Positions 21,278-40,096 of a stretch of DNA of 64,000 nt are shown here, one piece after another. Origin of the DNA: Candidatus Aenigmatarchaeota archaeon. GTDB taxonomy: Archaea > Aenigmatarchaeota > Aenigmatarchaeia > JACPZZ01. Position 1 is the first letter of the stretch; each line of letters begins with the position of its first letter. Under the pieces are notes generated by a model that did not search any database, was not told the DNA's origin, and saw nothing but the letters and a program-made list of their open reading frames with translations. Made by a program: the position numbers and the translations under genes. The stretch lies in assembly GCA_016180965.1 (NCBI GenBank), contig JACPAF010000001.1:223513-287512 (forward strand). The letters run 5' to 3'.

Positions 21278-21676
21278 CTAGGCCTGTTTTTTGAAATCTT
21301 CAAGCATTTTCCTGACTTCCGAGATTGTTACGAATTGTGATTTAATCGGGTTGATCAGGTCTATGAAACCCTGTATTTCGCGAAGCTCTGTTTTTGTCGA
21401 TGCGCGTTCCATTTGTTTTGATAATTTCCGGGTGTCGTCTTCGATCTTAGACACGCGGTTTGCCAGTTCGTCTATTTTTGCGTTCAATTTGTCAGTCGAC
21501 AGTTTTGCCTGTTTGAACTGCTCAACCACGCTTTGGTCTATGTTCGATAACGTCGATTCCGAACCGCTCATCTTTTGTTCTACCAATCGCAACCGTTTAG
21601 AGTTATCATTGAAACGGCGTATCAACTCCCCGATTACTGCTTGCACGTTGGCTGGTTTCTTGTCGAAGACGGCCAT
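21278..21676 (-). CDS. coiled-coil protein, divergently transcribed from the pilus ATPase
   Basis: 132 aa, heptad-rich (KLNAKIDELANRVSKIEDDTRKLSKQMERAS). Confidence 0.45.
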   Translation of the reverse strand: MAVFDKKPANVQAVIGELIRRFNDNSKRLRLVEQKMSGSESTLSNIDQSVVEQFKQAKLSTDKLNAKIDELANRVSKIEDDTRKLSKQMERASTKTELREIQGFIDLINPIKSQFVTISEVRKMLEDFKKQA

Positions 21677-21710
21677 ATAATAGAATTTAGTTTAAAGGAT
21701 AATATAATAT

Positions 21711-23984
21711 ATGGCCTTGCAGTTTGAGTACAGTCCGGAAGATAATTCTATAAGATTGAACACGCTGGGCACTTTATACGGGTCAAGTTTGGAGGATTTT
21801 GAGGCTATAATGGCAGCGGCGATAGACAAAATTGTCGAGGTCAAGAAAGTTTCGAGAATAATCCTGGCTGAGACGCGCGAATATGAATATGACTGGGAAC
21901 AAACACGCCTGTTGGTTGAGATCGCAAATGCTTTGGACGAAATAGTGCGCGGGCGACGTTTGTTGTCTGTTACCAACATATCCATACCAAATTGCGACCG
22001 GCACACCGCGGAAAGAAGCCATAACGTGCAGCGCATTGTCATTGATTTGATGCGGCGCGACCCTATTGGGGCGTATGCGGAAGTTTTGAGAGAGATACGC
22101 AAAGTGAAAATAGAAGCGCGGAAAAATCCGTACCACGTGCAATGCTACGCGCACTATGTCAATAATTCGCTTGCGCAAATACAGCGAATAATGGAATCCA
22201 CGACTTTGATCCAAATGATCAAAGATAACGTTGCCGGTTATCACATCGGGGACCGTACACTTTACAGAGAAATATTCCACCCTACAATACGGCCGAATTT
22301 CATGTTAACGCGTTTCATGTCCGCGACGCCGAAGGAAGGGCAGGCGGTCGACCGTTATAAAATAGGCGACATAGAAGTTGAAATTTACCGCATACCGTCG
22401 AAATCGGAATTAGTTTATCACGTGATTCCTCCGGAGTTTCAGTTAACGGAAGACAAGTACATGCTGTTGGACGCTGCGAGGCGTTACATGGCTGAACACA
22501 AACCGGTTGAGACTGAATTTTCAGATCCGGAACGCGCGCGCGAAATATTCTCCAACATCGGGCGCGACATGATACGAGACCTTTCGACGAACATGGGAAT
22601 TTTTTTGAGCCCGCTTGAGATAGAAAATATTACTAAAATACTGACGCGGTATACGGCCGGGTTTGGAGTGTTGGAAATATTATTAGCTGACGAAAAAATA
22701 CAGGACATTTACATAAATTCACCGATCGGGCAGAATCCGATTTACATAAACCACGCAGACTACAATGAGTGTTCGACTAACCTAATTCCTACGAAAGATG
22801 ATGCGGAGTCATGGGCAACGAGGTTCCGCATTGCGTCCGGGCGCCCGCTGGACGAAGCTAACCCGGTTTTGGACACGGACATAAATGTTCCGGGCGGGCG
22901 GGCAAGAGTAGCTGCGATCACGAAAACCTTGTCGCCCGAGGGTTTGGCATTTGCATTCCGAAGGCACAGGGATAAACCGTGGACGCTGCCGTTGTTCATT
23001 AAGGCAGGCGCGATAAGCCCGTTGTTCGCGGGTGTCATGAGTTTTTTAGTTGATGGATCAGCATCTATCCTGATCGCAGGCGGAAGAGGTTCTGGTAAAA
23101 CTTCATTATTAAACGCGATGATGCTTGAAATTTCGCCGAACAAGCGGATACTGACAGTCGAAGACACAATCGAATTGGCCGTGGATTACATGAGGAAACT
23201 CGGCTACAATATTGAAAGATTAAAATCGCGTTCCGTGATAACGCATATTGAAACAGAGATGGCTGCGGACGAGGCGTTGCGAACGGCGCTGCGCCTCGGA
23301 GATTCATCTCTGATAGTGGGCGAAGTCAGAAGTCTGGAAGCGAAAGCGCTCTATGAGGCAATGAGAATAGGCGCGTTGTCGAACGTTGTCGCAGGGACAA
23401 TTCACGGTGAGTCGCCTTATGGCGTTTATGACCGTGTTGTCAACGATCTTGGCGTGCCGTCGACGAGCTTCAAAGCCACGGATATAATCGTGATATCAAA
23501 AATGCTTCGTTCTGCGGATGGGTTACACAAATTTCGCCGTGTTACGGAATTAACAGAAGTCCGCAAACACTGGAAGACGGATCCGTATGACGAGAAAGGC
23601 TTTGTCAACCTCATGGAATATTCCGCGTCCGCGGACGAGTTAAAACCTACGGAAATATTATCTACGGGCGAGTCGGAAATAATCAACCGCATCGCCTCGC
23701 TAACAAGGGAGTGGGAAGGCCGTTGGGAGGATGTCTGGGAAAACATACAACTGAGAGCGAATATAAAAAAAGCGATGGTTGATTATTCGATAAAATTGAA
23801 TTTTCCGGAATTGATTGAGGCGCCTTGGGTCACGCAATCGAACGAACAGTTCCATATAATTTCTTCCAGGCTGAAAGAAGAAACGGGCTACATGGATCCC
23901 AAGGAGATATTTTCCAGGTGGGATAAGTGGTTTTCTTCGAAAATCAAGGAACGCGCCCCGCGAATGTCGGCACGGGTTTTGTGA
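21711..23984 (+). CDS. type IV pilus/secretion ATPase (FlaI/PilB/GspE/VirB11 superfamily) with about 300 aa N-terminal extension
   Basis: Walker A ILIAGGRGSGKTSLLNAMM, Asp box TVEDTIEL, Walker B/His box SLIVGEVRSLEAKALYEAMRIGA..VAGTIHG. 757 aa versus about 540 aa for FlaI. Confidence 0.85.
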   Translation: MALQFEYSPEDNSIRLNTLGTLYGSSLEDFEAIMAAAIDKIVEVKKVSRIILAETREYEYDWEQTRLLVEIANALDEIVRGRRLLSVTNISIPNCDRHTAERSHNVQRIVIDLMRRDPIGAYAEVLREIRKVKIEARKNPYHVQCYAHYVNNSLAQIQRIMESTTLIQMIKDNVAGYHIGDRTLYREIFHPTIRPNFMLTRFMSATPKEGQAVDRYKIGDIEVEIYRIPSKSELVYHVIPPEFQLTEDKYMLLDAARRYMAEHKPVETEFSDPERAREIFSNIGRDMIRDLSTNMGIFLSPLEIENITKILTRYTAGFGVLEILLADEKIQDIYINSPIGQNPIYINHADYNECSTNLIPTKDDAESWATRFRIASGRPLDEANPVLDTDINVPGGRARVAAITKTLSPEGLAFAFRRHRDKPWTLPLFIKAGAISPLFAGVMSFLVDGSASILIAGGRGSGKTSLLNAMMLEISPNKRILTVEDTIELAVDYMRKLGYNIERLKSRSVITHIETEMAADEALRTALRLGDSSLIVGEVRSLEAKALYEAMRIGALSNVVAGTIHGESPYGVYDRVVNDLGVPSTSFKATDIIVISKMLRSADGLHKFRRVTELTEVRKHWKTDPYDEKGFVNLMEYSASADELKPTEILSTGESEIINRIASLTREWEGRWEDVWENIQLRANIKKAMVDYSIKLNFPELIEAPWVTQSNEQFHIISSRLKEETGYMDPKEIFSRWDKWFSSKIKERAPRMSARVL

Positions 23985-23988
23985 TAAT

Positions 23989-26061
23989 ATGTCGGATGAA
24001 AGGAAAAAGATAGACGAGGAGGAACTTGCGCGCATCGCGCGCGATTACCAGACAAAAGTGTTCGATGAGGATAAACCCGAAAAAAACGAGCAGAACTTTT
24101 TGTCGCTTGACTACAAAACGTTCAAAACCGAGGAGAGGGGTTCTAAAAAATCCCTTGGCAATTATGAAAAGCTGTGCGCTATTTCGGAGAAAATATTAAA
24201 GGTCGAGCCTTCGAAGGGTTCTGAAGAACATCTGCGCAAGGAAATAGATTTTACTAACCTACAGTGCGCACCTTCGAGCGTAACGTCGGCAGCATTTTTG
24301 TCCACGATAATGCTGCTTGTCATTTCCCTTGTTTTTATTTTGCTGGGCGCAGTCCCGATATTTGTAGGATTGACGATGCTAATTTTTTCCATGATATCCG
24401 GAGTTTACGTCTACGGTTATCCGTCGAAACGCGCCAAAGATTTCCGCGTTAAGGCGTCGGAGGAAATAGTATTGTCGATAGTTTACATGGTCATATCGAT
24501 GCGTATCTCGCCCAATTTGGAAAATGCTGTGAAATTTGTAGCAACGAATTTAACCGGCCCGCTTGCCTTGGATTTCCGCAAATTGCTGTGGGACATTTAC
24601 ATGCGGAAAGAGGAAAGCATCGATAAGGCGCTGGGCACGTACATAGACGCGCGATGGAAAAACGAGAACGAGGAATTTTCTTCGGCTTTGACATTAATAC
24701 GCAATTCGATAGACCAGCCTGAGAAGAAACGTCTTGCAATGTTGGACGAGGCTGTTGATGTGATATTAAAAGGCACGAAAGAAAGGATGAGCCATTATGC
24801 ACAGAATCTGCGGATGCCTTTGCTGATAATACATGCGATGGGCATTTTGCTGCCGATAATGGGATTGGTGATGTTCCCGGTATTAGTTTTGTTTTTATCC
24901 AATATTGTGCAGCCGTACATGCTGTTTTTGGGTTATGACGTGTTTTTGTTTTTGGGATTGTACTGGTACACGTCAAGCGTATTGGCAACGAAACCGCCGA
25001 CGCTTTCTAAACCTGATGTTTCAAAACATCCGGACACGCCAAGAGAAGGATATTTCCGCGCTCACGTTTTCGGGAAAAAACTGGAGATAAAAACAATCAT
25101 ATTGCCGTCCATACTTTTCGCAGTTCTGTTTTTCATAGGCTATAATGGAATGGTTTCCGGAGCAAGTTCGTTTGAACGCGTGATTTATTCGACTGTAATA
25201 ATTGCGTCTATTTCGCTTTCGATATCTCTGTACGGTTTCCTTGAAAGTTTCCAGCGTACGAGCGTACGGCGCAAAGTCATTGGAGTTGAAGGCGAGTTTG
25301 CGGAGGCGATTTTCCATTTAGGCAACCAATTGTCTTCAGGCACGCCAATTGAAAATGCGATAGATAAAAACCAGGAGAAGATTCGAGATTTGAGCATCTC
25401 CGATTTTTTCGGGCGTATTGTGCAGAATATTAAAAGAATGGGCATGACATTCGAGCAGTCTATATTCGATAAAAATTACGGGGCCGTTTGGTACTACCCG
25501 TCGAGCTTAATAATTTCCGTGATGCGCGTTGTCGTTGAGGCGGTAAGGAAGGGCGTTTACAATGCGTCGCAATCGATGCTGTCCATTTCCCGCTATCTCA
25601 AGGACGTACATTCCATCGAAGAGGAGTTACGCGACATATTGGGCGAAAGCACGACGAGCATGAAATTTTTAAGCTCGATTCTTGCGCCGATGGTTGCCGG
25701 CGTTACGGTCACGATGGCGTTGATAATGCTCGATATAATCAAAGTTTTAGGAGACAAGCTCGCAGGATTAACGCAACAGGGCGTCGGGACTAGTTTGCCA
25801 TTGTTCTTGACAGTGGGTTTGGATAAAGGCGGCGTGACTGCGGAAATATTCCAGCTCGTGGTCGGCATATACATGATTGAAGTCGCGGGTTTGTTGTCGT
25901 ATTTCGTCAGCAAAATAGAGACGGGCGAAGATAAAATAAATCTTTACCACACATTATCTATCAATATGTTAATTTCATTGATAGTCTACGCGTTTTCGAT
26001 ACTTACCGTTTATTCCACTCTGGGTTCGCAGATACAAAACACAATACTAGGGGGCATTTGA
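23989..26061 (+). CDS. polytopic pilus platform protein (FlaJ/TadC/PilC-like, T2SS-F domains)
   Basis: 690 aa with at least nine TM helices, immediately downstream of the ATPase. Confidence 0.7.
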   Translation: MSDERKKIDEEELARIARDYQTKVFDEDKPEKNEQNFLSLDYKTFKTEERGSKKSLGNYEKLCAISEKILKVEPSKGSEEHLRKEIDFTNLQCAPSSVTSAAFLSTIMLLVISLVFILLGAVPIFVGLTMLIFSMISGVYVYGYPSKRAKDFRVKASEEIVLSIVYMVISMRISPNLENAVKFVATNLTGPLALDFRKLLWDIYMRKEESIDKALGTYIDARWKNENEEFSSALTLIRNSIDQPEKKRLAMLDEAVDVILKGTKERMSHYAQNLRMPLLIIHAMGILLPIMGLVMFPVLVLFLSNIVQPYMLFLGYDVFLFLGLYWYTSSVLATKPPTLSKPDVSKHPDTPREGYFRAHVFGKKLEIKTIILPSILFAVLFFIGYNGMVSGASSFERVIYSTVIIASISLSISLYGFLESFQRTSVRRKVIGVEGEFAEAIFHLGNQLSSGTPIENAIDKNQEKIRDLSISDFFGRIVQNIKRMGMTFEQSIFDKNYGAVWYYPSSLIISVMRVVVEAVRKGVYNASQSMLSISRYLKDVHSIEEELRDILGESTTSMKFLSSILAPMVAGVTVTMALIMLDIIKVLGDKLAGLTQQGVGTSLPLFLTVGLDKGGVTAEIFQLVVGIYMIEVAGLLSYFVSKIETGEDKINLYHTLSINMLISLIVYAFSILTVYSTLGSQIQNTILGGI

Positions 26062-26555
26062 TGAGCGCTTCCGATCAACCAAGGTTTTTGTTCTGGCTAG
26101 TCACTGCGTTCATAATGGCGCTCACGCTTTACGGCGTTGCGTCCTTGCTCTTGCCAAGATTGATAAGGTTTAACCAACTGCCCGAATCAGGCGAGTTGTA
26201 CGTGGACAGCGCCGACGCGCTTTCGACTAGGATTGCGTACAGCATGTGTAATTTGTGGCTCGCGCGCGACAGTTACAAAACCGGTTTTAGCAGCACGTCC
26301 CAGTACAAGTCCGTTTCCGCTTCGGTTGATAAAAACACAGTTGCATCGAAGTTATTCGATTCTGATTGCAAGGATTTCATTTTCAACAAACAATGGACAT
26401 ATACGGGCGACGAGATAGATGCGGATAAAAAAATCTATAACGTGGAAATATCTTTGGAACCGAATACCATAATGATTCCGGGGAGCGGTGAATCTCCATC
26501 AGTCATACTGAATAACGATAACAGAAAGATAATAGTAAATGTGAAAGAGAAATGA
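26061..26555 (+). CDS. membrane-anchored protein translationally coupled to the platform gene
   Basis: Start ATG overlaps the TGA of the platform gene (TGATG). N-terminal TM helix FLFWLVTAFIMALTLYGVASLLL. Confidence 0.45.
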   Translation: MSASDQPRFLFWLVTAFIMALTLYGVASLLLPRLIRFNQLPESGELYVDSADALSTRIAYSMCNLWLARDSYKTGFSSTSQYKSVSASVDKNTVASKLFDSDCKDFIFNKQWTYTGDEIDADKKIYNVEISLEPNTIMIPGSGESPSVILNNDNRKIIVNVKEK

Positions 26556-26564
26556 GATGATTTG

Positions 26565-26798
26565 ATGAATGTGTTAAAGGGCCAGATAGAATCCGAGGCT
26601 GCGAAAACGCTTTTCCTAGGCATACTGGCTTTGGTGGCGTTGGCGGTTATCGTGGCTGTAATATTTGCGTTTCAAGGCCTTTCGTCGGGAGCCAATTTAC
26701 CGAGCGTGTGCGATGTGGGCGGGGGGCTTGTGGATAAAACTGTGTGTTTGCCGGCGCGTGCAACGGCCTGGGTTTACAGCCATACCATCGGGCGATAA
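26565..26798 (+). CDS. small pilin-like protein (class III signal peptide)
   Basis: MNVLKGQIESEAAKTLFLGILALVALAVIVAVIFAF: KG-Q cleavage motif followed by a hydrophobic helix. Confidence 0.5.
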   Translation: MNVLKGQIESEAAKTLFLGILALVALAVIVAVIFAFQGLSSGANLPSVCDVGGGLVDKTVCLPARATAWVYSHTIGR

Positions 26799-26799
26799 A

Positions 26800-27036
26800 A
26801 TGAATAAATGTAAAAAAATTGGCGATGATATGTTAAACAAAAAAGGGATAACAAGCGCAATGCTGATCATTCTCGGATCCATAGCGGCAGGTTTGATAGT
26901 CCTTTTGGTAGTGATAGCTTCTTTGGATGAAAAAACAGGGCTGGTAGCATTGGCAATAGCGATAGGCAAGAGCATATGCGGTTTCATCGCAACAGTTATC
27001 ATAGGCGGTTTCGGATTGGCCATATGCAATATCTGA
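26800..27036 (+). CDS. small pilin-like protein
   Basis: MNKCKKIGDDMLNKKGITSAMLIILGSIAAGLIVLLVVIASL. Alternative ATG at 26830. Not in the track as a separate ORF. Confidence 0.45.
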   Translation: MNKCKKIGDDMLNKKGITSAMLIILGSIAAGLIVLLVVIASLDEKTGLVALAIAIGKSICGFIATVIIGGFGLAICNI

Positions 27037-27078
27037 ATGATATTTTATCTTAACGGACGAATAATCAAGAGGCATAAC

Positions 27079-28593
27079 ATGGTGAAAAAAAGAAAAGGAA
27101 TGGACGCAGCCGTGCTCAGTCTTGCGCTGGGCGTTGTAATACTTCTTGTTGTTTTAGGTGTTATTGTCGGGTTAAACACATCAGGTTCGTTCAAGGATTT
27201 TCTTGCCAAAGTTCCTTGGTTGAATAAAATTGTTCCGGTTGATGACACCAGTGATGGAGGCGGCGGCGGGCCAGGAGGAGGTTCTGTCGTAGCGCCGCCG
27301 GGCAAGCCATCGGGCGATGTGGTATATTTAGTCGCAGCCAGAAAAAGCACATCCACTGACCGCAGCCTTCGAGTTAAAATTTCCGACGGTGTTCCATCGG
27401 GCGAAAGCATTAAGTACAATTTCAAGAAAGGCGACACTTTGGAGTATGATGTTTATCTTCCTTTGAAGACTCCATGTACGGGCGGCATGGGTTTGGTTGT
27501 AACCGCAAATGGAAAAGACATAGACCTCGGCGACGACAATAAATGGGTAGATTCGACCGGGAAGGTTTCTGGTGGGTTGAAGAACTGCAATCCGGATCCG
27601 AAGAAGGTTGTTACGGAAAGCGATCTGACACCATACACCTATGACAAGAAACAATGGTATCATCGTGTTATTCCAATACCCGATGTATATGCCGGCGCAG
27701 CCACTCTGAAAGAAGTCAGATTATTGATGAACGGCGGCACGCCTTATGCTATGTACATTGCGGTTTATGACAATATCATTATAAAATCACCGGTCAACGG
27801 AAAAGATTATATCATATACAAGGACGGCGCTCCAAAATTCAGCGAAATAGATTGCGGTTCTGCGTTTGGTACAAAATGCAATTTCGATGAGGATAAAACG
27901 AAAGTTATAATCAGGAAACCAGCTAGCATCACATTGGAATACGACATCAAATCGGTTGCCGGCGAGATATTGAAGTTATCGGCGATAAGCGACGGCGGAG
28001 GATGCAGCTGGTTTGATAGCAGCGGATGCCAGTGGCTTTATTTGAAGGCGTTTGAATTGGGTTCTGCGTATACAGTCCAGCCGGGCGACATTGTTGAATA
28101 TGACGTTTATCTCGGAAAATGCGCCAAAGAGGTCGGCGGCATAGATTTGCGTGATAAGAGCGGTTCGATTAAGTGGAGTAATATGAAAGATTATTACTGG
28201 GACAACATGTATGACTGGGACAGCACGAAGATAATATCCGGCAGACCGGATGATTCGGGCATGGACCTAGGCACGAAAGCCGGCGAAATCGCATGCCTGA
28301 AATGGTACCACAGAAAACTTCCAGCTGCGCCGAATATGTGGGGTAAAGCCGTCGAAATTGTAGATTTGGCGATAGGATACGATGCGGGCGAGAATGAGCA
28401 AGTGAATGTTTATTATGACAACTTACAGATAACGGACGGCATCGGGCAGGTCAAGGCGTTTTATCCTGGCGGTGTGGATATAGTTCTCTACCAGTTTGAT
28501 GAGAAGAACGACAACGGCGGAATACGGGCGTACAAAAAAGACTCGGTTTCATTGACAAAGATAAACCCGGCAGACATTGATCACCCGACGTAA
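27079..28593 (+). CDS. large pilin-like surface protein (504 aa) with class III-type N-terminus
   Basis: MVKKRKGMDAAVLSLALGVVILLVVLGVIVGL, then a Gly-rich linker GGGGGPGGG and a Cys-containing beta-rich domain. AAGAGG Shine-Dalgarno before ATG 27079. Confidence 0.6.
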   Translation: MVKKRKGMDAAVLSLALGVVILLVVLGVIVGLNTSGSFKDFLAKVPWLNKIVPVDDTSDGGGGGPGGGSVVAPPGKPSGDVVYLVAARKSTSTDRSLRVKISDGVPSGESIKYNFKKGDTLEYDVYLPLKTPCTGGMGLVVTANGKDIDLGDDNKWVDSTGKVSGGLKNCNPDPKKVVTESDLTPYTYDKKQWYHRVIPIPDVYAGAATLKEVRLLMNGGTPYAMYIAVYDNIIIKSPVNGKDYIIYKDGAPKFSEIDCGSAFGTKCNFDEDKTKVIIRKPASITLEYDIKSVAGEILKLSAISDGGGCSWFDSSGCQWLYLKAFELGSAYTVQPGDIVEYDVYLGKCAKEVGGIDLRDKSGSIKWSNMKDYYWDNMYDWDSTKIISGRPDDSGMDLGTKAGEIACLKWYHRKLPAAPNMWGKAVEIVDLAIGYDAGENEQVNVYYDNLQITDGIGQVKAFYPGGVDIVLYQFDEKNDNGGIRAYKKDSVSLTKINPADIDHPT

Positions 28594-28624
28594 CGCGTAA
28601 TAATACCGTTTTACAAATACATTT

Positions 28625-28975
28625 ATGACCTTTTCCAAACGACGAAAAGAAAATAGAATGGGCATAGCCGAGTATAATTTCGCCTTGCTGATGGGGCTGG
28701 TAATTGCGCTGGTGATGCTGGCAGTTTATCTCGGCTGGATAAAGGGGAGCGGTGAAAACGTTGAGCGCGAAAGAAACCAAATGGTTGCGGCAGCAGGATG
28801 TTTGGCGGACAATTCATGCGCCAAACTGAGCAGCGACAAATTTTGCATAAACACTTATGAAGGAAAGAATGAGTGCGGCTGCTGGGCATGGATGGGAATT
28901 GACGGCAATGCGGGCTGCGGACCTGGCAAAAGATGCGTTTCGGAACGGGGGACGAATTATGGAAAATGTGTTTAA
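28625..28975 (+). CDS. small Cys-rich pilin-like protein
   Basis: RMGIAEYNFALLMGLVIALVMLAVYLGW, then a Cys-rich domain CINTYEGKNECGCWAWMGIDGNAGCGPGKRC. Confidence 0.45.
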   Translation: MTFSKRRKENRMGIAEYNFALLMGLVIALVMLAVYLGWIKGSGENVERERNQMVAAAGCLADNSCAKLSSDKFCINTYEGKNECGCWAWMGIDGNAGCGPGKRCVSERGTNYGKCV

Positions 28976-29153: not shown

Positions 29154-29202
29154 CTATTAACATCTTTTATATTTTTCAAAATTCATATTTAACTTGTTTT
29201 GA

Positions 29203-29631: not shown

Positions 29632-29654
29632 TTTATTTTACCGAAGATGAAATT

Positions 29655-29999
29655 ATGGTTGTGCGAAAAAAAGGAATGATGATTGTCGAGCTGATGGTCA
29701 TTGTGGTGTTAGCCGTAATAGTATTGGCGGTTTTAATCGGGATTATAATTTTGGGCGGGCAGCAGCCGACAAGCGATTTAGCGAAACAAACTTTAGTGCG
29801 TTCTTGTTGCCAATTAAACATGCCGTTATCCTGCAGCAACACGCAGAACGTGAATTGCATTGTTTCCAAGGAATTAGAAGCCGGTTTCGATTGCACGCCA
29901 ATCGACGGCAGCCCGTGCAAAAAAACTTTAGTGGAAATCGCCGGCAAAGTTGGCATATCTGACGTGTCTGGAGTCAAAACGTTCTGCGGGTGCGGATAA
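29655..29999 (+). CDS. type IV pilin-like protein with bacterial-style G/MMIVE motif and Cys-rich C-terminus
   Basis: MVVRKKG|MMIVELMVIVVLAVIVLAVLIG has Glu at +5 after Gly. C-terminus ...KTFCGCG. Confidence 0.55.
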   Translation: MVVRKKGMMIVELMVIVVLAVIVLAVLIGIIILGGQQPTSDLAKQTLVRSCCQLNMPLSCSNTQNVNCIVSKELEAGFDCTPIDGSPCKKTLVEIAGKVGISDVSGVKTFCGCG

Positions 30000-30034
30000 A
30001 ATCCAATTTAATAAGGATTTACGAATAATATTTG

Positions 30035-32749
30035 ATGTTGACAGAAATTAAACAAGTCAAATTTCATTCTGAATCGAGAAAAGGTTTTGGCGAAGATCAG
30101 GTTTTTCTCCTTGTTGGGATATTGATTTTGGTAATAACATCCTACATGATTTACATGCTGATAGGCGGACCGACGTGCGACGATTTGGCCAAACGAACTG
30201 CGAACAACATTAAAGTCGCGGTCGACTCTGTCGCGACAACGGGGACGTACACAAAAGATTCTCCGTATACTACGTATGCGATGCTGTGCCAGAACAAAGT
30301 TGGAGATCCTTTAACATTGAACCCATTCCAATATAGAGTGTTTTCTGCGCCCGAATACATGATCTACTGGGAGCATTTTCCAAACGCGCCGAACAACATT
30401 GTTGAAGGATTGTACAAATTCGATGAGAGTTATCCGTTCACTAAAAACACTGCGCAGATAATAGGGATAACATTGGCTACTTCATTTATCAGCGGTACAT
30501 TTTCGTCGTTGAAAGCTGCGAAAAACCTTGGGATTACAGATGAAGTTTTAGCTAAAACCGAAGGGACGAAGATGGGCGATGCGATCAGGCTGTTTGGAAA
30601 AACGAAAGACGCTGTAATGGCGCCTTTCACATACCCGGTGAGGGGTATTAAATATTTGCTGAGCTTGCCGGGCAAAGGCATGAAGGCCTTATACACAATT
30701 ACGGGCCTTAAGGGGATTGTTGACGACGGGGTCAAGTACATAACAAGCAAGACTGCACCCAAAATATTTGGGCACCAGGTCAGCCTCGGATTCCTGGCGT
30801 CGATGGCGGACAACGGCTTGATCGAGGCGTCGAACGTCGGGGAAGAACTGGCGGTAAATATTATCAAAGTCACCGACGACGCGACAGGCGAGGTTATTGA
30901 AAAGGCTGTTGTGCCAGTGGGCAGGAGGGCAGAACTGAAAACAGTTGTTGACGGGTTGATCGGGAGCGCAGACGATGCGGAAAAACAGGCCGGGCTGGCG
31001 CTGAAAAGATATTTCGCCTATACCGACGACGATTTTGCAAAATCCCTCGGAAGTTCGCAATCAAAGTTTGAGGATATAATACTGAAATCGGACGTTGATG
31101 ATAAAGGATTTTACGGGTTGGTCAGCGGGGCTTCAAAAGCTGCTGAAGAACAATTTGACGCGAATGCGAAAATCATGGCATCAAGGTATGGTTTATACTC
31201 GTCGCGGCCGATAACCTCGTTTTTTGAACAGAGCGGGATAACGAAGTTTTCAAACAAAATCACCGCAACGGACGTTTTCAGGAGGATGGATTTTTTTGTA
31301 ACAGACGACGCTGGTAAAGCTGTGTTGAAACCGGAAATGCTCGAGAAGATACAGAGCAGTTTCAAGGAATTGAAAATACAAACGCAGCTTACCGACCCGG
31401 ATAAAATTACTGACGCGACGGGGCGCTTTTTCACGAGCAGCGAATCCATAGTTGCGGGCGCGGAAACGGATACGGCCATGCTGTCGTACGCGGAAACTTT
31501 TTTGAAGAACGCAAAGGACGGGCCGGCCACCGGAATAAAATTGGACGCGTTGGAACATTTCTTCAAAGGGACAGCATCGGACGATGAGATAGCCAGCATA
31601 TCCAGCAAATTTTCTACCGGATATTTGCAGGAAATGAAAGATGCTGGAGTAAGCCAGGAAATCATAGATTCCGCTTCCAAAAAACTTTCCACCGCTAATT
31701 ACGGCAGGAGGCTGTTGAGGGACTATTCTTCGGAATTGAAGCTTGCCCAGGGCGTTACTGTTGATACCAATGAAGTTTACGAGATTGCAAAGCTTTCCGC
31801 GGCATGGAAGCGCGAACCGGAGCAGTTAGCTTTGATGGCGGATGAAAAGTATACTTTCATACCTTATGCAATTTATGAAAAAATTGGAGGATGGAGCCCG
31901 AAAGCCACAAGCAAATTCATAAAAGTCAATATCGAATCGTACGGTTTGAATGAGATGGAAAACAATTTGAAATACCTTTATCTTAAATCTCCGAATGCCG
32001 GATGCGAATCAAACACGGTCTGTTTAAACCAGAAGGGGGTTGAACAAAAAAAATCCGACGTTTCCGAGGATCAGGTGAAGGATTATGAGACGATGTATGC
32101 TGTCTCGAAAAATGTCATGGTGCGCTTGGATCGAGGTGGTTTTACGTCCCCTATAGGAGCGGGAATAGGCGCTTTCTCTTTTGACAAGGAACCGCGGTTT
32201 CATTTGGTGTCGCCATGCCTTGCGAAATTAAGCGTTTACGAGGACGCTGACAATCCTACTGACGGCGAGACCGGAAGACCGCTGGTGAAAGTCAATGTTG
32301 ATCCGTGCCCTGTTACAGGCCATTCAAACTATTGTTATTTCCCAACAAGCAAATTCAACGAAATGGCCGCAGGTTTTTACGGTTCGTTAGCATGTTCCAT
32401 TGTCGCTGACATAGGGAAAGCCGCCCTGTTCGGTTTTGTTTTACAGCCAGCGTGTTCTGGAATACAAATTAAAACCGAATACGATACTACTTGGCCTTTC
32501 TCGCCTTTCCAGCCTTTGAAAAGCGCGGATATGAACGTATTGAATTGCGAAATACAAAAAAATCCGAAGGATGCGGCGAAATTAATGGTGACGGCGTGCT
32601 GCGGACTTGCGAAATGCGACGGCAGTTATGTATGCTCTGGAAATAATTACGCGGACAAGAACCAGGCAATTTGCGGAAAGGACAAGTGCACAATGGGAGA
32701 TTTGTCCAAAATGTCCGGGCTGGATTACAAATCCGCGTGCGGATGCTGA
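30035..32749 (+). CDS. giant pilin-like surface protein (904 aa) with class III-type N-terminus and Cys-rich C-terminal domain
   Basis: MLTEIKQVKFHSESRKGFGEDQVFLLVGILILVITSYMIYML. The last about 250 aa hold 20 Cys and end ...KSACGC. Confidence 0.6.
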   Translation: MLTEIKQVKFHSESRKGFGEDQVFLLVGILILVITSYMIYMLIGGPTCDDLAKRTANNIKVAVDSVATTGTYTKDSPYTTYAMLCQNKVGDPLTLNPFQYRVFSAPEYMIYWEHFPNAPNNIVEGLYKFDESYPFTKNTAQIIGITLATSFISGTFSSLKAAKNLGITDEVLAKTEGTKMGDAIRLFGKTKDAVMAPFTYPVRGIKYLLSLPGKGMKALYTITGLKGIVDDGVKYITSKTAPKIFGHQVSLGFLASMADNGLIEASNVGEELAVNIIKVTDDATGEVIEKAVVPVGRRAELKTVVDGLIGSADDAEKQAGLALKRYFAYTDDDFAKSLGSSQSKFEDIILKSDVDDKGFYGLVSGASKAAEEQFDANAKIMASRYGLYSSRPITSFFEQSGITKFSNKITATDVFRRMDFFVTDDAGKAVLKPEMLEKIQSSFKELKIQTQLTDPDKITDATGRFFTSSESIVAGAETDTAMLSYAETFLKNAKDGPATGIKLDALEHFFKGTASDDEIASISSKFSTGYLQEMKDAGVSQEIIDSASKKLSTANYGRRLLRDYSSELKLAQGVTVDTNEVYEIAKLSAAWKREPEQLALMADEKYTFIPYAIYEKIGGWSPKATSKFIKVNIESYGLNEMENNLKYLYLKSPNAGCESNTVCLNQKGVEQKKSDVSEDQVKDYETMYAVSKNVMVRLDRGGFTSPIGAGIGAFSFDKEPRFHLVSPCLAKLSVYEDADNPTDGETGRPLVKVNVDPCPVTGHSNYCYFPTSKFNEMAAGFYGSLACSIVADIGKAALFGFVLQPACSGIQIKTEYDTTWPFSPFQPLKSADMNVLNCEIQKNPKDAAKLMVTACCGLAKCDGSYVCSGNNYADKNQAICGKDKCTMGDLSKMSGLDYKSACGC

Positions 32750-33225
32750 ATAAAATGAAAGGAATCATAATAGTAAGGGATTTCATCATTTTTCTTTCAG
32801 AGCTTGGAATATTACTGTTAAGCATACTTTTCATAACAACAGCGGGCGCAGCCATGGGCGAGTTTGTTTTTAATTTTGATTCGCGGCTTGCTTCAGAGAC
32901 TTTATTCGGGTTCCATACGGCTGCCGACATGGCTCCGAGCTATGAGGCGAGTTTTATAATGGCTTCAAACCCGTACACAATGAAAATATCCAAAGACGGA
33001 AATGATAATTTTATTTTCATAAACTCCACCAGGGAACTCTTTAACTTAGCCCACACGGCGCAGGTAAAAATATTGCCACCCAGAAAACTTTTCCTTGTAA
33101 ACTCCGGACCGAATGAAATAATATTGATAGAAAAAAAAATGGACGAAAAACACAACTGGCTGATTGGTGTGAAGAAAACCGACGGTAAAACCGTGACTTT
33201 GGTGAACGAGCAAGAGGTGAAATGA
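32743..33225 (+). CDS. pilin-like protein
   Basis: MLNKMKGIIIVRDFIIFLSELGILLLSILFITTAGAAMG. Start overlaps the stop of the 904 aa gene. Confidence 0.45.
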   Translation: MLNKMKGIIIVRDFIIFLSELGILLLSILFITTAGAAMGEFVFNFDSRLASETLFGFHTAADMAPSYEASFIMASNPYTMKISKDGNDNFIFINSTRELFNLAHTAQVKILPPRKLFLVNSGPNEIILIEKKMDEKHNWLIGVKKTDGKTVTLVNEQEVK

Positions 33226-33665
33226 TGTCTACGTTCATGGCTGAAAATTTACTTAAAATCGTTGCGCTGGTTGTCAGCATATTGGGCATACTAGCCACAT
33301 TAGTCCAATTCCAATCGTTCAGTTTGGAGATACACGGCAAGCAGGTTGACAGGGAGTATTTAATTTTTTCACAATACATGGCTGGTGCGCCTTTCCTTAC
33401 GTACGATAAACCGGATTACAGGAAAGGGGTTTTAGACGCCGACAAATTGAACGCATTGGACAACGGCTCCTTCGCGCAAAAATTCAGCTTCGCCGACCTG
33501 ACAAAATATCTTATCATCATAGCAACGGATTCTAGTACGTGGATTTTCGGGGACGATTCAATACTGAAAGAAAAAAACAGGGTGTGGGCGCATCCGGTTG
33601 CGGTAAAGATGTCAGATACCATAATACCTGGTACGATGAAAGTTTATGTGCCGAAGGCTGGTTGA
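33222..33665 (+). CDS. pilin-like/membrane-anchored protein
   Basis: MMSTFMAENLLKIVALVVSILGILATLVQF. AAGAGGTGA Shine-Dalgarno. Start overlaps the previous stop. Confidence 0.4.
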   Translation: MMSTFMAENLLKIVALVVSILGILATLVQFQSFSLEIHGKQVDREYLIFSQYMAGAPFLTYDKPDYRKGVLDADKLNALDNGSFAQKFSFADLTKYLIIIATDSSTWIFGDDSILKEKNRVWAHPVAVKMSDTIIPGTMKVYVPKAG

Positions 33666-33666
33666 A

Positions 33667-34242
33667 ATGAATAACCTTTTTAGAAAAAAGCTTAACCAAA
33701 AAATGAAAGGAGACGTGTGGTACGTTTCGACTTTCTTTTTTCTCGTTTCGCTCTTTTCCGTAACAATGATAATGCTGTTTTCAATGAGCATCGCGCGTCT
33801 GATTGTCGGAAATTTGATAGATTACACGGTCCACGTGAGCTTTTTGGATTTTTCCCTGAACACGGAAAACGCTTTGTTGTCGGGGATGGAAATTAAAATG
33901 GACCCGAACGACACTTCGATGAAGACCATATTATCAAATGCCGCGTTCCAATGGAGCGGGGATCCTGGTTGGGATAAAAATGTTTTTGCGGGCGGAAAAA
34001 TGTACGATGCGGCCCAGCGTTCAAAGGACATCTTTGATAAATTGGTGCAGGGGCCGTACATTTTTGAATTGCGAAAGCAATTCGATGCGTCCGACGCGAG
34101 AAGGATAATATTTGCCGAGCGTAATGCGGAGTCGATTAAAAGCGATCCGGAAGTTGCTGAGATGGAATTTTATTTGCCGTATCCGGCGTGCGGCGGTTGC
34201 AGTAAAATTGCAGTTTACAGACTGTATTCAACGGTGAAATAA
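33667..34242 (+). CDS. pilin-like protein
   Basis: MNNLFRKKLNQKMKGDVWYVSTFFFLVSLFSVTMIMLFSM: basic residues, KG, then a hydrophobic helix. Confidence 0.45.
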   Translation: MNNLFRKKLNQKMKGDVWYVSTFFFLVSLFSVTMIMLFSMSIARLIVGNLIDYTVHVSFLDFSLNTENALLSGMEIKMDPNDTSMKTILSNAAFQWSGDPGWDKNVFAGGKMYDAAQRSKDIFDKLVQGPYIFELRKQFDASDARRIIFAERNAESIKSDPEVAEMEFYLPYPACGGCSKIAVYRLYSTVK

Positions 34243-35562
34243 ATGAGGGGAAGCATTTACACGTTCATGGGAAGCATCGTGATGGTTATGATAGGCGTAG
34301 GGATAATCTGGTGGTTTAGGTCTGTTGTTCCTTCGGAAGCTTTCATAGTTTCTGAAAGGCACAGGGAAAGTTTTTCCGCGTTGAATTATCTGGAGCTGTC
34401 AAGAAAATCCATGGAAGAAGCAATTATGATTTATGCGCAGACCGGCGCGACGAAAGCCGGCTCAGCGGGCGGGCTGGATGCTACAGCCCAGCAGAAGGAT
34501 AAAATTGCGATATGGAAAAATGCGCCCGACGCGACGACGATAAAGGACACGCTGCAAAGATACATAGTGGACGAGATTGCGATTTTGCAGCAACATGAGA
34601 TCAAAGGCAAATTCCTGGCAATTGATTACGGAAGTTTGAACATTCAGATCAATCCTGACAGCGATGACTTTTCTAAATCTGAAAAGTTTTATGTGAAAGG
34701 CGAGAAGGAAATAAAAGTTTCCAAGAACCTGCAGACGCAGGCCATAAAAATCTCAACAAGCTTGAAGGGCTACATAGACGACGAGATTAAATTAAAATAT
34801 TTCGCGCTATACGACGCGGCGAAAAAGTTTTTCGAGGGCGGAGAGCCCGTTAACAGGATAAACAGCGCATTTAACGGCGTTAACACGGTTGGGAGCAAAA
34901 CGAATAGTGCCTGTCCGTCTGCCAGCGTTGGATGCGTAAGCAAGGCATGCCCTGTTTTCACGACAACATTCCCGACGCCGCCGGAGGTTTTGAACGAGAA
35001 AACAGACTTTTCCAAACTGCTTGTCAAAGCGGGCGGTATAACAGGAGCAATCGCAGGCGCACCATTTTCGTTATTCAATGCCAAGTTTGAAAACTATGCA
35101 TCAGCGTTCTTGGCTGGCTACGGGTCATCAGACATAACACAACCAACAGGCAGTTGCGGCTTTTCATGCACTTACCTGGAACCGAACCCTTGCAAAACAA
35201 CAGTGCCTGATTGCGCGCCTGCGGCAGACTCGGACAGCCCACCAGTTTGCACCCCAAAATGCGTACCCGGTTTTGATACTATAACTTTATCGTGTTCGGC
35301 AGAGACTAAAACAACAACTATAGCTTTCACATTCCTCGCCGACGCGTATGAAAAATATTCTTCCGAAGACCCGTCAGGGATTGTTCCGTCGACGAGTATC
35401 CATGACGTCGCTGTTGTCTCAAAACCATTACCTTACGATACGCTCAAGTTTAATTTCATGACCCACAGCTGTACGACGATAGATAAAAACGCGGTTGTTA
35501 CGGAGCTAAAGGATAATATTGAATCATGCCAATTGCCTCCGAGCGTTACGAATCATGTTTAG
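34243..35562 (+). CDS. large pilin-like protein (439 aa), Cys-rich
   Basis: MRGSIYTFMGSIVMVMIGVGIIWWF (RG-S motif). The C-terminal half holds 16 Cys. Confidence 0.5.
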   Translation: MRGSIYTFMGSIVMVMIGVGIIWWFRSVVPSEAFIVSERHRESFSALNYLELSRKSMEEAIMIYAQTGATKAGSAGGLDATAQQKDKIAIWKNAPDATTIKDTLQRYIVDEIAILQQHEIKGKFLAIDYGSLNIQINPDSDDFSKSEKFYVKGEKEIKVSKNLQTQAIKISTSLKGYIDDEIKLKYFALYDAAKKFFEGGEPVNRINSAFNGVNTVGSKTNSACPSASVGCVSKACPVFTTTFPTPPEVLNEKTDFSKLLVKAGGITGAIAGAPFSLFNAKFENYASAFLAGYGSSDITQPTGSCGFSCTYLEPNPCKTTVPDCAPAADSDSPPVCTPKCVPGFDTITLSCSAETKTTTIAFTFLADAYEKYSSEDPSGIVPSTSIHDVAVVSKPLPYDTLKFNFMTHSCTTIDKNAVVTELKDNIESCQLPPSVTNHV

Positions 35563-35615
35563 AGTGAAACCAATGTATTTAAGCCAATTCGAGGAAATAG
35601 ATAATAAGGTCAAAA

Positions 35616-35915
35616 ATGAAGCGCAAGGGTATCTCTTTACCAATAGACATGCTCGTTATCTTGGCGATAGCTGTCATTATTCTAATTGCTGTTGTGGCTG
35701 TTTTCATGGGCGTATGGAGTCCTTTTGCGACGAACCAACAGGCAAGGGCGAATTTCAACAAAGAATGCCAGGTTTTAGTTAATACGGGCTGTACGCAAAC
35801 TCCTTCGCTGGCGTTATGCAAAGCGGCTAATGGGATTGTTTTGAACAAAGAAACTTGCGATAGTGATCCAGACAGACTTGCGGTCAAGAAAGGATGCGGC
35901 TGCCCGGGATTGTGA
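35616..35915 (+). CDS. type IV pilin (candidate major pilin), C-terminal GCGCPG
   Basis: MKRKGISLPIDMLVILAIAVIILIAVVAVFMGVW...KKGCGCPGL. Tandem paralog of the next gene. Confidence 0.65.
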   Translation: MKRKGISLPIDMLVILAIAVIILIAVVAVFMGVWSPFATNQQARANFNKECQVLVNTGCTQTPSLALCKAANGIVLNKETCDSDPDRLAVKKGCGCPGL

Positions 35916-35919
35916 TCTT

Positions 35920-36315
35920 ATGGTTAAAAGAAAAGGTATTTCGCTCCCAATTGATATGTTAGTTGTTTTGGCAATCGCTGTCATAATTTTAATCGCGATC
36001 GTTGCCGTTTTCATGGGTGTCTGGAATCCATTTTCGACGAACCAGCAATCACGGGCGAATTTCAACAAGGCTTGCCAGATATTAGTCAACACCGGCTGCG
36101 CAGGAGATCCGTCAGTGGATTTGTGCAAAGCTGCGAATGGAATTGTTTTGAATAAGGACACTTGCGATAGTGATCCGGATAAACTTGCGGTTAAAGTCGG
36201 GTGCGGCTGTCCGGGCGTTTCCGGAACAACGGCAACTGCTCCGCCGGCTGGTGACAGTGGTTCTCCAGGCGCACCGGGTCCGGGAGATGTGGGTGACAGC
36301 GGGCCTTCTAGATAA
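35920..36315 (+). CDS. type IV pilin paralog with Gly/Ser/Pro-rich C-terminal tail
   Basis: MVKRKGISLPIDMLVVLAIAVIILIAIVAVFMGVW...VGCGCPGVSGTTATAPPAGDSGSPGAPGPG. Confidence 0.65.
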   Translation: MVKRKGISLPIDMLVVLAIAVIILIAIVAVFMGVWNPFSTNQQSRANFNKACQILVNTGCAGDPSVDLCKAANGIVLNKDTCDSDPDKLAVKVGCGCPGVSGTTATAPPAGDSGSPGAPGPGDVGDSGPSR

Positions 36316-36370
36316 TGGATTTTAAATGTTTAGAATGTTGAATTAGGTTGTTGATTAAGGGTAATTGAAA

Positions 36371-37561
36371 ATGAAAACTCCTACAGTTAAAACAAGTTTA
36401 TTCGTTCTAAGTTCAATTTTTGTGATGTTTTTATTTTCTTTTCTTGCTTATTCCGGCGCGGGTGTTGGCAGTTCCATGGTTGCGGATGTAAGTTTTACAG
36501 CAGATGAAACTTCGCAACAAAAACAGGCCGCAGATTCATTCAACGCACTACAAAAATACAAGCCCGACCAGCAGGTTTTGATAAAAGTTAGAGGTTCTGT
36601 GGTCGGCTCGGGCAGCATATGGTATATGGGCGTCGGTTTGGTAAAAACAGGCGATGATAAATTTGTTTACAAATATTGGGTATCACCAAGCGGTGGCGCA
36701 GTTGATACTTCTTCGGCCGTTACGCCAGAAGCTTTGGCTAAATGCCCGGGCGATGGAAAAGATTGTACGATGACCATAAAATTACCCGGCACGGCTTCAC
36801 AATATGCCGGGATGGAAGTAATACCATTTTTAAGCGGTTTCCTAGACGGGAAACAAACATCGAATGCGCAATTTGGAAGCTATTATGTAATACGTGTCCA
36901 GGGCGCGGTTGTTGATCTTGGAAAACTCGGGATAACGGTTCCAAATGAAAAACCTACGGTTACAGTTAAAGCAGAGAGAAATGCGATATACACAGATGAA
37001 AAGGTGAAGATTATGGTCGAGGCGAAAGCGTCTGACGGGGATATCAGGTCCATATCCGTGGATGTGCCCACTCAGGCCAATTCGAAGCAAATTTACGATT
37101 GCAACAATAAAGAAAGAAGTTTGTGCAAACATGATTTTTTAGTTCCTCTAAAATCTGTGGGTGATTTAACTGTGATGGCAAAGGCTGTTGATTTGAGAGA
37201 TTCTGAATCCGACTCAAACGGTGTTACAATATCGGTCCAGAACAGGGTCAGCGTAGTGGAAGGATTTAACACTTTTGTGGTTGGAGGAAGCAGTTCTGAC
37301 GGAGCCTTGTTCAGGTCTTGGTTATCCATGAAACAGGACGAAAATAAGAGGACGTTCGGCACAACAGACGTTTATTTGTGGGAGATTCCCGGTGCCACAC
37401 AATGTGGCTGGGAGCAAAGCACGTTTGCAGCTCTCGGGTCCAATTTTGTCTGGAAAAGAATAGATATGCTATACAAGTTAAATTCAGATGATAAGGCGCT
37501 TGCGGTTTATTGCGTGAAAAGTAAATATGTTTATTCAGGTTCTGGCGACGAGGATTATTAA
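36371..37561 (+). CDS. secreted protein with Sec-type signal peptide, beta-rich (Ig-like) domains
   Basis: MKTPTVKTSLFVLSSIFVMFLFSFLAYSGAG, then a Thr/Ser/Val-rich beta-strand pattern. 396 aa. Confidence 0.5.
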   Translation: MKTPTVKTSLFVLSSIFVMFLFSFLAYSGAGVGSSMVADVSFTADETSQQKQAADSFNALQKYKPDQQVLIKVRGSVVGSGSIWYMGVGLVKTGDDKFVYKYWVSPSGGAVDTSSAVTPEALAKCPGDGKDCTMTIKLPGTASQYAGMEVIPFLSGFLDGKQTSNAQFGSYYVIRVQGAVVDLGKLGITVPNEKPTVTVKAERNAIYTDEKVKIMVEAKASDGDIRSISVDVPTQANSKQIYDCNNKERSLCKHDFLVPLKSVGDLTVMAKAVDLRDSESDSNGVTISVQNRVSVVEGFNTFVVGGSSSDGALFRSWLSMKQDENKRTFGTTDVYLWEIPGATQCGWEQSTFAALGSNFVWKRIDMLYKLNSDDKALAVYCVKSKYVYSGSGDEDY

Positions 37562-40071: not shown

Positions 40072-40096
40072 CGGTTAGAATCACATCGAGGAAACT

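Follow-up and report, generated by a model that had tools for sequence, protein, structure and literature searches.

The stretch of DNA analysed here, the window, comprises 64,000 nt of contig JACPAF010000001.1 from a groundwater metagenome-assembled genome (MAG) of Candidatus Aenigmatarchaeota, a DPANN archaeon with a small genome. We found that a compact run of plus-strand genes in this window (21711-36315) encodes an ATPase, then a platform protein, and then 15 open reading frames (ORFs) with an N-terminal hydrophobic helix, in the order p165, p77, p68, p504, p116, p64, p142, p114, p904, p159, p147, p198, p439, p99 and p131. We conclude that this run is probably a locus for the assembly of an archaeal type IV filament (TFF), belonging to a DPANN-specific family. 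The locus is real and conserved, beyond what chance would produce. Intergenic distances within the run lie between -20 and +53 nt, with overlap of several start and stop codons; the p64 and p116 genes overlap by 17 nt. Besides the 757-aa ATPase and the 690-aa platform protein, the encoded proteins range from 64 to 904 aa.

The first two genes of the run are:

21711-23984, plus strand: secretion ATPase of the GspE/FlaI/CpaF branch, 757 aa
23989-26061, plus strand: TadC/FlaJ-like platform protein, 690 aa, polytopic

The ATPase core (approximately residues 285-640) is preceded by an extension of about 280 aa and followed by a helical, Trp-rich extension of about 110 aa. The protein matched Pfam T2SSE above the Pfam cut-off (E=6.4e-19), and its core matched the PDB sequences of archaeal GspE (2OAP) and CpaF at about 1e-28 and that of FlaI at about 1e-17. 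In a Foldseek search with the AlphaFold2 (AF2) model (predicted local distance difference test score, pLDDT, 80), 2OAP ranked first (E=1e-26, target TM-score, TMt, 0.77), followed by FlaI (also at E~1e-26) and CpaF. The NCBIfam TadA-family and FlaI models both matched at about 1e-41, below their thresholds, with the FlaI model reaching 141.7 bits against a cut-off of 550. An alignment of 40 homologues contained an invariant Walker A motif (GGRGSGKT), Asp-box (EDTxE), Walker B motif (GExR) and His-box (TIHG), and many residues within the N- and C-terminal extensions were also invariant. The ATPase is catalytically intact. Its homologues occur at about 60% identity across hundreds of DPANN MAGs, including MAGs labelled Aenigmatarchaeota and Nanoarchaeota, and the best annotated plasmid-borne relative is a haloarchaeal protein with a Cys-rich N-terminus (37% identity, 1e-63). 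The family consensus has N-terminal Cys at positions 4, 19, 22 and 33, one of the four being present in at least 90% of the sequences, and these residues may form a metal-binding site. Q, L, L and I occupy the four positions in the window ATPase (21711-21830), the Cys having been lost in its clade. Some ATPase homologues (P0012, P0041 and P0116) are 918-1267 aa long and contain intein or LAGLIDADG domains (PF14890, PF14528). At L017, one of the relatives' loci that we designate by L numbers, the ATPase match reaches no further than residue 464, with the platform about 4.6 kb beyond it (3230-9249), which suggests an insertion or intein.

The platform protein has about nine transmembrane (TM) segments and two T2SSF-like cytoplasmic domains (approximately residues 167-297 and 394-521). 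Its first half matched Pfam T2SSF below threshold (E=1.9e-4, 21.9 bits against a cut-off of 25.2), the same model matched 13 of 26 platform family members (best 9.5e-9), and its second half aligned in hhalign (E=4.8e-5) with a canonical T2SSF protein encoded elsewhere in the window. A "secretion system protein" from a Haloterrigena plasmid aligned with the platform over 566 aa (E=6e-36). A search of the platform profile against PDB gave no meaningful match. By these family relationships the protein is a polytopic T2SSF-type (GspF/PilC/TadC/FlaJ) component.

An earlier note on this DNA, made from the letters alone, had described a FlaI/PilB-type ATPase and a FlaJ/TadC-type platform protein in a tightly packed run of genes from a putative small-genome archaeon. 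The T2SSE match, the 2OAP and CpaF sequence matches and the Foldseek result bear out the first assignment, and the T2SSF, hhalign and Haloterrigena alignments the second. Its description of tight packing (we measured overlaps of 4-20 nt or short gaps) and of protein sizes from 64 to 904 aa was accurate, and the MAG assignment agrees with a small-genome archaeon. The array of 14 pilin-like genes that it reported exists, although the count does not hold, there being 15 ORFs with a helix and 11-12 with the signal motif described below. It was mistaken in placing two coiled-coil genes at the start of the same-strand run; both are on the minus strand, and one of them (19916-20596) lies outside the interval that it had delimited.

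The evidence that the downstream genes encode filament subunits comes from the class III signal motif and from synteny. A scan took in every stop-to-stop frame of either strand in the 64 kb and required [KR][GAS] together with an 18-residue window of mean Kyte-Doolittle hydropathy of at least 2.0, with the hydrophobic window no more than 12 residues after the motif and a start codon no more than 30 codons before it. With Gly at position -1, N-terminal matches were found in 11 genes of the locus and in five genes at 58.2-60.7 kb, and nowhere else; the remaining four matches with Gly at this position were internal TM segments of polytopic proteins. In 11 of the 15 ORFs [KR]G is followed by a hydrophobic stretch of 18 aa or more, p116 has MG instead, and p165, p142 and p147 lack the motif. 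These results support the prediction that 11-12 locus proteins carry class III signal peptides, which would be cleaved after the Gly. The genes are listed below with the predicted cleavage site marked by a slash; the ratios of nonsynonymous to synonymous substitution rates (dN/dS) refer to L007, the closest relative, and identities to the relatives L019 and L020, the latter being a sample of the same contig as L010.

26058-26555, plus strand: p165, N-terminal TM anchor without [KR]G (MSASDQPRF...), orthologues also without KG, dN/dS 0.07
26565-26798, plus strand: p77, short and class-III-like (MNVLKG/QIESE...), 2 Cys, dN/dS 0.12
26830-27036, plus strand: p68, short and class-III-like (MLNKKG/ITSAML...), 2 Cys, KKG in all orthologues, dN/dS 0.22
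27079-28593, plus strand: p504, large and class-III-like (MVKKRKG/MDAAVL...), motif kept in orthologues
28625-28975, plus strand: p116, class-III-like, 8 Cys, ..NRMG/IAEYNF here and MKKG/ISEYN in orthologues
28959-29153, plus strand: p64, short and class-III-like (MENVFKG/QSSDNV...), 2 Cys
29203-29631, plus strand: p142, N-terminal helix without [KR]G (MPEREINLAQF...), 12 Cys, 39-41% identity to L019/L020
29655-29999, plus strand: p114, class-III-like (MVVRKKG/MMIVEL..., Glu at +5), 8 Cys
30035-32749, plus strand: p904, the largest class-III-like protein (..SESRKG/FGEDQVF...), 18 Cys, conserved Cys-rich C-terminal third
32743-33225, plus strand: p159, class-III-like (MLNKMKG/IIIVRDF...), 0 Cys, start may be 32755
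33222-33665, plus strand: p147, N-terminal TM helix, [KR]G absent, 0 Cys
33667-34242, plus strand: p198, class-III-like (..NQKMKG/DVWYVS...), start picked from orthologue comparison
34243-35562, plus strand: p439, class-III-like (MRG/SIYTFM...), 12 Cys, 50-52% identity to L019/L020
35616-35915, plus strand: p99, small pilin (MKRKG/ISLPIDMLVILAIAV...), 6 Cys
35920-36315, plus strand: p131, paralogue in tandem with p99 (83% identity), C-terminal tail rich in Pro, Gly and Ser

The motif is kept in most orthologues and also far beyond them. The p116 orthologues have KG in every case but one (L019/L011, MKA), and the KG of p77 was seen in L007-L009 and was not evident in L019/L020. At L006, L012, L015 and L016, where ATPase identity is 54-60%, the genes after the platform begin with MKG, MKKG or MSKG followed by a helix, and tblastn detected no similarity between these genes and the window pilins. 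BLAST revealed no paralogy among the pilin-like genes other than the p99/p131 pair; the array is not a recent tandem expansion. Cys numbers in gene order are 2, 2, 2, 8, 8, 2, 12, 8, 18, 0, 0, 3, 12, 6 and 6, with p198 the only odd one; even numbers in nearly all members suggest extracellular heads stabilised by disulfides. Both p165 and p147 could be bitopic accessory proteins or atypical pilins.

Two large members of the array stand out. The most variable is p504, with 26-32% identity to its counterpart in L020, where the ATPase reaches 93%; it had no Pfam or NCBIfam match, and a two-fold internal repeat suspected by eye was unsupported by BLAST self-comparison. For p904, 15 full-length homologues were found among 5.8e9 clusters, and those with a source name are from Aenigmarchaeota except for one partial entry labelled Ca. 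Uhrbacteria. The p904 AF2 model, built from a 14-sequence alignment, had a mean pLDDT of 57 and was confident at residues ~240-610 only.

The penultimate gene of the array, p99, belongs to a widespread family, which consists of 255 representative clusters (50% identity) at E<=1e-3. In the family alignment K(-2) is invariant, G(-1) and P(+4) occur in at least 90% of members and four Cys are conserved; these four are among the six Cys present in both p99 and p131. Many leaders in the family are as short as MKG. Pilin_N weakly matched 2 of 31 family members, and hhalign weakly aligned the KG of the p99 family with that of the window's canonical pilins (E=4e-4). p99 is also the best-conserved pilin-like gene, with 85% identity to L020 and a dN/dS of 0.08. 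L019 and L020 have a single p99-type copy with a Thr/Pro-rich tail, and the window has an extra tandem copy. Searches with the p99 profile reached two distant metagenomic loci: L022, with a platform 44% identical to ours, class-III-like genes including ones of 693 and 835 aa and two p99-type genes at the end, and L025, with large class-III-like genes followed by five tandem p99-type genes. Because they are best conserved, array-terminal, tandemly amplified and widely distributed, we infer that p99/p131 are the major (bulk) subunit of the filament.

Conservation of gene order was assessed at 17 informative loci carrying the ATPase. The platform gene is immediately downstream of the ATPase gene in 13 of the 17, and in at least 10 the platform is in turn followed by a class-III-like array, across ATPase identities of 54-97%. 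L019 and L020 have 14 pilin-like genes in an order identical to that of the window. The most constant neighbors of the ATPase are two genes for coiled-coil proteins, adjacent to it and divergent from it at 16 of the 17 loci:

19916-20596, minus strand: cc226, cytoplasmic, Q/P-rich at the N-terminus, coiled coil at the C-terminus; adjoins the ATPase in 16/17 loci
21278-21676, minus strand: cc132, small coiled-coil protein divergent from the ATPase, with homologues in 16/17 loci

The cc132 homologues share 27-97% identity and are on the strand opposite the ATPase at these 16 loci; the dN/dS of cc132 is 0.03, and its Pfam matches are to generic coiled-coil models only. A plus-strand ORF at 21291-21680 was discarded in favor of the minus-strand cc132, which conservation favors. 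cc226 gave a sub-threshold match to Pfam DUF7310 (E=4.6e-5), which is also the commonest Pfam match among its homologues (8 of 16, always below the cut-off). Since they are its most constant neighbors, we infer that the two proteins form a cytoplasmic scaffold or regulator of the ATPase. A 196-aa membrane protein gene without a family match lies between the two coiled-coil genes (20663-21253, plus strand); it was found in the closest relatives only (L007; L010/L020) and is not a conserved part of the system.

Upstream of the coiled-coil genes is a family of six paralogous proteins with 4-5 TM segments, the m family, for which blastp established the paralogy:

15190-16107, plus strand: m-family protein
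16124-16951, plus strand: m-family protein
16988-17584, plus strand: m-family protein
17660-18151, plus strand: m-family protein
18216-18761, plus strand: m-family protein
18795-19388, plus strand: m-family protein

These proteins share the N-terminal motif LGFYxFVLPFLLxFAIxYGIL and have no Pfam match. Homologues lie beside the ATPase in L002, L003, L004, L006-L011, L013-L017, L019 and L020, and are present even near ATPase loci that lack pilins (L002, L003). The m proteins are probably accessory components, putative members of the system by this association. We ruled out the m family as a divergent prepilin peptidase, as an alignment of 14 sequences contained no conserved Asp or GxGD and only one Pro was invariant.

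Rates of change differ sharply along the locus. Identity to L020 is 93% for the ATPase, 85% for p99 and 83% for the platform, and 26-60% for the other pilin-like genes. In the comparison with L007 the ATPase, platform and coiled-coil genes have dN/dS values of 0.02-0.03, and p165, p77 and p68, which evolve 4-10 times faster than the ATPase, have values of 0.07-0.22. Across the pilin-like genes dN is 4-14 times that of the ATPase, with p99 the exception. The pilin-like genes are thus fast-changing yet under purifying selection, and the dN/dS values of 0.07-0.22 indicate that the small ORFs are real, constrained genes. The motor is conserved more widely and more tightly than its presumed substrates.

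Several observations weigh against reading the locus as a filament assembly system. None of the 15 pilin-like proteins scored above threshold with the Pfam or NCBIfam pilin hidden Markov models (HMMs). The best Pilin_N (PF07790) score was that of p99 (E=0.009, 17.3 bits against a gathering cut-off of 25.2), the other 14 gave no match, and none of the 15 qualifies as a Pilin_N or canonical PilA-type pilin. p165, p142 and p147 lack [KR]G here and in their orthologues. The hhalign comparison of the p99 family with canonical pilins had a probability of 35%, and the p904 model had no PDB fold match at E<=1e-3 in Foldseek. The window has no gene for a signal peptidase of class III; cleavage is a prediction. 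Finally, at L001-L003 neither a platform nor pilins lie near the ATPase and its coiled-coil partners, so that the ATPase family is not strictly tied to such an array; at these loci (ATPase identity ~60%; L001 is CP070801.1) glycosyltransferases and a gene resembling methionyl-tRNA synthetase lie downstream instead.

Because the curated HMMs were negative, the pilin call rests on the conserved cleavage-site context together with synteny. One alternative is that the downstream ORFs encode Cys-rich surface proteins of the ordinary kind, either signal-anchored or exported through Sec, in one operon with a secretion ATPase gene. Besides the missing HMM matches and the three ORFs without KG, this explanation could appeal to the last gene, which has a plain Sec signal:

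36371-37561, plus strand: sec396, Sec-type signal peptide, N-terminus MKTPTVKTSLFVLSSIFVMFLFSFLAYSGAG

We consider it highly unlikely, as the invariant K(-2) and the G(-1) of at least 90% are found just before the helix throughout the 255-cluster p99 family, and the motif is retained while the remaining sequence of each protein diverges past recognition. The KG abuts the helix and leaders can be as short as MKG, which indicates a class III architecture and not a Sec n-h-c signal. sec396 itself has no Pfam or NCBIfam match; it is absent from L019, and L020 has a different 361-aa gene at the same place. It is not a conserved component of the locus.

These results also settle most of what the earlier note had said about the pilins. 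Its type IV pilus-like reading is in essence right, borne out by the ATPase, the platform and the conserved [KR]G plus helix, and lacks pilin HMM support; the profile searches that it proposed yielded the single sub-threshold Pilin_N match (E=0.009) and nothing from NCBIfam. The KG/RG cleavage context on which it relied is kept in orthologues and in very distant, otherwise unalignable loci. The protein closing the run does have the Sec signal that was reported, and the label Ig-like found no support in Pfam or NCBIfam matches. That the number and size of the pilins are unusual is weakened by the multi-pilin islands of DPANN archaea (Makarova 2019, PMC6393860), the array itself being real. Its failure to recognise a prepilin peptidase was repeated here, with no Peptidase_A24 match and no GxGD in any multi-TM ORF of the 64-kb window. 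Makarova 2016 (PMC4858521) states that the signal peptidase gene is usually located elsewhere in the genome, and the empty A24 scan covers these 64 kb only.

Another alternative is that the ATPase, the coiled-coil pair and the m family form a separate DPANN machine, and that the pilins are assembled elsewhere, for example by a second system at the end of the window:

58223-58678, plus strand: Pilin_N-type pilin
58718-59179, plus strand: Pilin_N-type pilin
59189-59701, plus strand: Pilin_N-type pilin
59750-59902: 50-aa fragment that duplicates the N-terminus of the 58718 gene
60213-60695, plus strand: Pilin_N-type pilin
61982-62851, minus strand: split T2SSF platform gene (E=4e-16)
62854-63729, minus strand: split T2SSF platform gene (E=8e-15)
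63730-64000, minus strand: KaiC/RecA-like C-terminus that runs off the window end, identified by eye from the translation

The four pilins have KG/[LV]SPL[IV]A[ST]VLL N-termini, and the pilins at 58.2-60.7 kb reach or nearly reach the Pilin_N cut-off. The interval 58223-64000 is a second, canonical type IV filament system, with its cognate ATPase presumably beyond the window end. The presence of this system, with its split T2SSF genes, KaiC-like gene and Pilin_N-type pilins, would make assembly elsewhere conceivable; L001-L003 and L014, which have the ATPase and coiled-coil partners without adjacent platform or pilins, and L005, which has the ATPase and platform and no pilins, would be explained as well. 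We nevertheless judge a separate machine to be very unlikely. The platform directly follows the ATPase in 13 of the 17 loci with arrays after it in 10 or more (ATPase identity 54-97%), along the run successive stop and start codons overlap or are separated by 4 nt, and the 58-64 kb system has canonical pilins of its own.

The steps by which type IV filaments are assembled are established, and they suggest how the products of this locus would act together. Prepilins would insert into the membrane, and an A24-family class III signal peptidase encoded outside the window would cut after the Gly. A hexameric ATPase docked on the platform, probably scaffolded by the cytoplasmic cc132 and cc226, would then drive the mature N-terminal helices into a helical filament. 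The 64-77-aa proteins and the mid-size Cys-rich proteins would be minor pilins. Since they are large and the fastest-diverging, p504, p904 and p439 may be subunits of the tip or adhesins, binding to a surface or a host cell, with p504 a candidate for adhesion or for setting specificity. The filament could plausibly serve to attach the cell to a host or surface. Pili-like appendages have been reported to join ultrasmall cells to their hosts in Ag groundwater, which is also the source of the relatives' MAGs (He et al. 2021, PMC7906910).

The same machinery might build a short pseudopilus or surface assembly for uptake or secretion, perhaps of DNA or nutrients from the host, on the model of the competence pseudopilus, the type II secretion system (T2SS) or the Sulfolobus bindosome. 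An ATPase kept at ~60% identity over hundreds of DPANN MAGs fits a near-essential function in cells of reduced biosynthesis, and the locus encodes many distinct 'minor' subunits and one conserved small subunit only. The ATPase also has a weak NCBIfam match to BasE, the bindosome ATPase (E=4e-18, far under the cut-off), and p114 has faint pseudopilin matches, which are insignificant in NCBIfam (E 0.06-0.24). We regard this alternative as unlikely, because no substrate-binding domain, ABC transporter, ComEC-like channel or nuclease was found in the locus or the adjoining genes, and p99-type genes are amplified to 2-5 tandem copies in relatives, as are the major pilins of long filaments (PMC4858521). 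That ultrasmall cells of this habitat bear pili-like appendages (PMC7906910) also speaks against it.

Within the reading that we prefer, a TFF assembly locus, a more ambitious version can be put forward tentatively. The ATPase, coiled-coil pair and m proteins would be a DPANN-wide core machine, and the filament a composite, disulfide-rich fibre with a p99-type shaft and ~10 minor subunits. This fibre would be the appendage that links cells to hosts in groundwater, with host specificity set by p504, p904 and p439. If true, this version would supply the 'missing cognate pilins' of the nanoarchaeal ATPases (Makarova et al. 2016).

The genes that flank the locus are archaeal and include those for threonyl-tRNA synthetase with an archaea-specific editing domain, Pus10, geranylgeranyl reductase, AMP phosphorylase, SRP54 and FtsY. 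The ATPase and p904 have 100% identical counterparts in a Ca. Aenigmarchaeota MAG (locus tags HYT71_*). The MAGs of the close relatives originate from a Northern California groundwater study. Phosphoglycerate mutase and AMP phosphorylase genes are common to the neighborhood of the pilus locus here (37635-42715) and at L005 and L006, and the relatives also have RuBisCO; this conserved neighborhood points to a stable chromosomal location and not a mobile island. Just upstream of the membrane-protein run is an IS605-family OrfB/TnpB gene with a Cas12f-like TNB domain (13259-14485, plus strand), and beside it is a minimal nucleotidyltransferase gene (11972-13120, minus strand) whose position is kept in L004, L019 and L020. 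A promoter and terminator scan gave counts near the level of shuffled sequence; its patterns are bacterial consensus sequences and uninformative for an archaeon.

DPANN archaea are mostly uncultured and thought to depend on host contact, and the contact apparatus is undescribed in most lineages. The locus offers a concrete, conserved parts list consisting of the motor, the platform, two coiled-coil partners, about 12 class-III-signal proteins and the p99 family. As current pilin and TFF annotation misses these genes, a p99-family profile would improve the annotation of DPANN genomes. Metaproteomics, antibodies or cryo-EM on enrichments could readily be directed at the same family, and the contrast in rates between close relatives (93% identity for the ATPase and 26% for p504) marks candidate determinants of host specificity.

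Loci of this kind are known in outline. Makarova, Wolf & Koonin 2019 (PMC6393860, Fig. 2A) described 'dark-matter' islands of DPANN archaea with an ATPase, a TadC-like gene and many signal-peptide proteins unlike known pilins, which they read as diverse, fast-evolving pilins; the example is given at figure level. Our locus has the same ATPase and TadC-like gene followed by many unrecognisable signal-peptide proteins. To these islands we add a fixed order of 14 genes, a terminal Cys-rich pilin family, the coiled-coil and multi-TM partners and the evolutionary rates.

A partial likeness exists to subclade 4F of Makarova, Koonin & Albers 2016 (PMC4858521), which is also treated as subsystem 4F in the preprint of Sivabalasarma & Albers 2026. 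In subclade 4F the ATPase is accompanied by a cytoplasmic coiled-coil protein (arCOG07564), its N-terminus often carries an additional Cys-rich domain, and it occurs in nanoarchaea, where cognate pilins could not be found. By the described features, the likeness would lie in the coiled-coil partners, with DUF7310 below threshold in 8 of 16, the 4-Cys family consensus and the haloarchaeal plasmid relative. The window differs from 4F in that its ATPase has lost the four Cys, its locus lacks both a PilA-family (Pilin_N) major pilin and an S-layer-like gene, and its pilins are encoded directly beside the motor.

The Epd pilus (system 1) of Methanococcus maripaludis, as described in a preprint, is encoded by an 11-gene cluster with several minor pilins, all required for piliation. 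Its major pilin is very short and lacks a globular head, its ATPase is related to bacterial TadA/CpaF, and the system has two platform genes and a dedicated signal peptidase, EpdA (arCOG2300). Our locus resembles it in having an ATPase nearer by sequence to CpaF than to FlaI and in having pilin-like proteins of 64-77 aa. It has one fused 690-aa platform and no peptidase, and does not belong to system 1; the split-platform system at 62-63.7 kb is nearer to the Epd layout than the main locus. With CpaF/TadA, GspE2 (2OAP) and FlaI (4IHQ) the ATPase shares the fold and catalytic motifs, and it differs from them in the ~280 N-terminal and 110 C-terminal extra residues found throughout its family. 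Nor is the locus an archaellum, as it has no archaellin, FlaH or FlaF/G and the FlaI model scored far under its cut-off; no locus protein had a Pfam match to secretin, TadZ, FlaH, FlaF/G or archaellin. A functional analogy can be drawn to the episymbiotic Saccharibacteria from the candidate phyla radiation (CPR), ultrasmall host-dependent cells that, according to two reports (PMC9894109, PMC11623550), find and bind their hosts by type IV pili (T4P). Theirs are bacterial, T4aP-type and experimentally supported, whereas the filament proposed here is predicted from genes. From these comparisons we conclude that the locus varies a known theme, the archaeal type IV filament, in a lineage-specific way and is not a new kind of machine, and that the p99 pilin family, the fixed 14-gene array and the core of ATPase, coiled-coil and m proteins are useful additions to islands known in outline.

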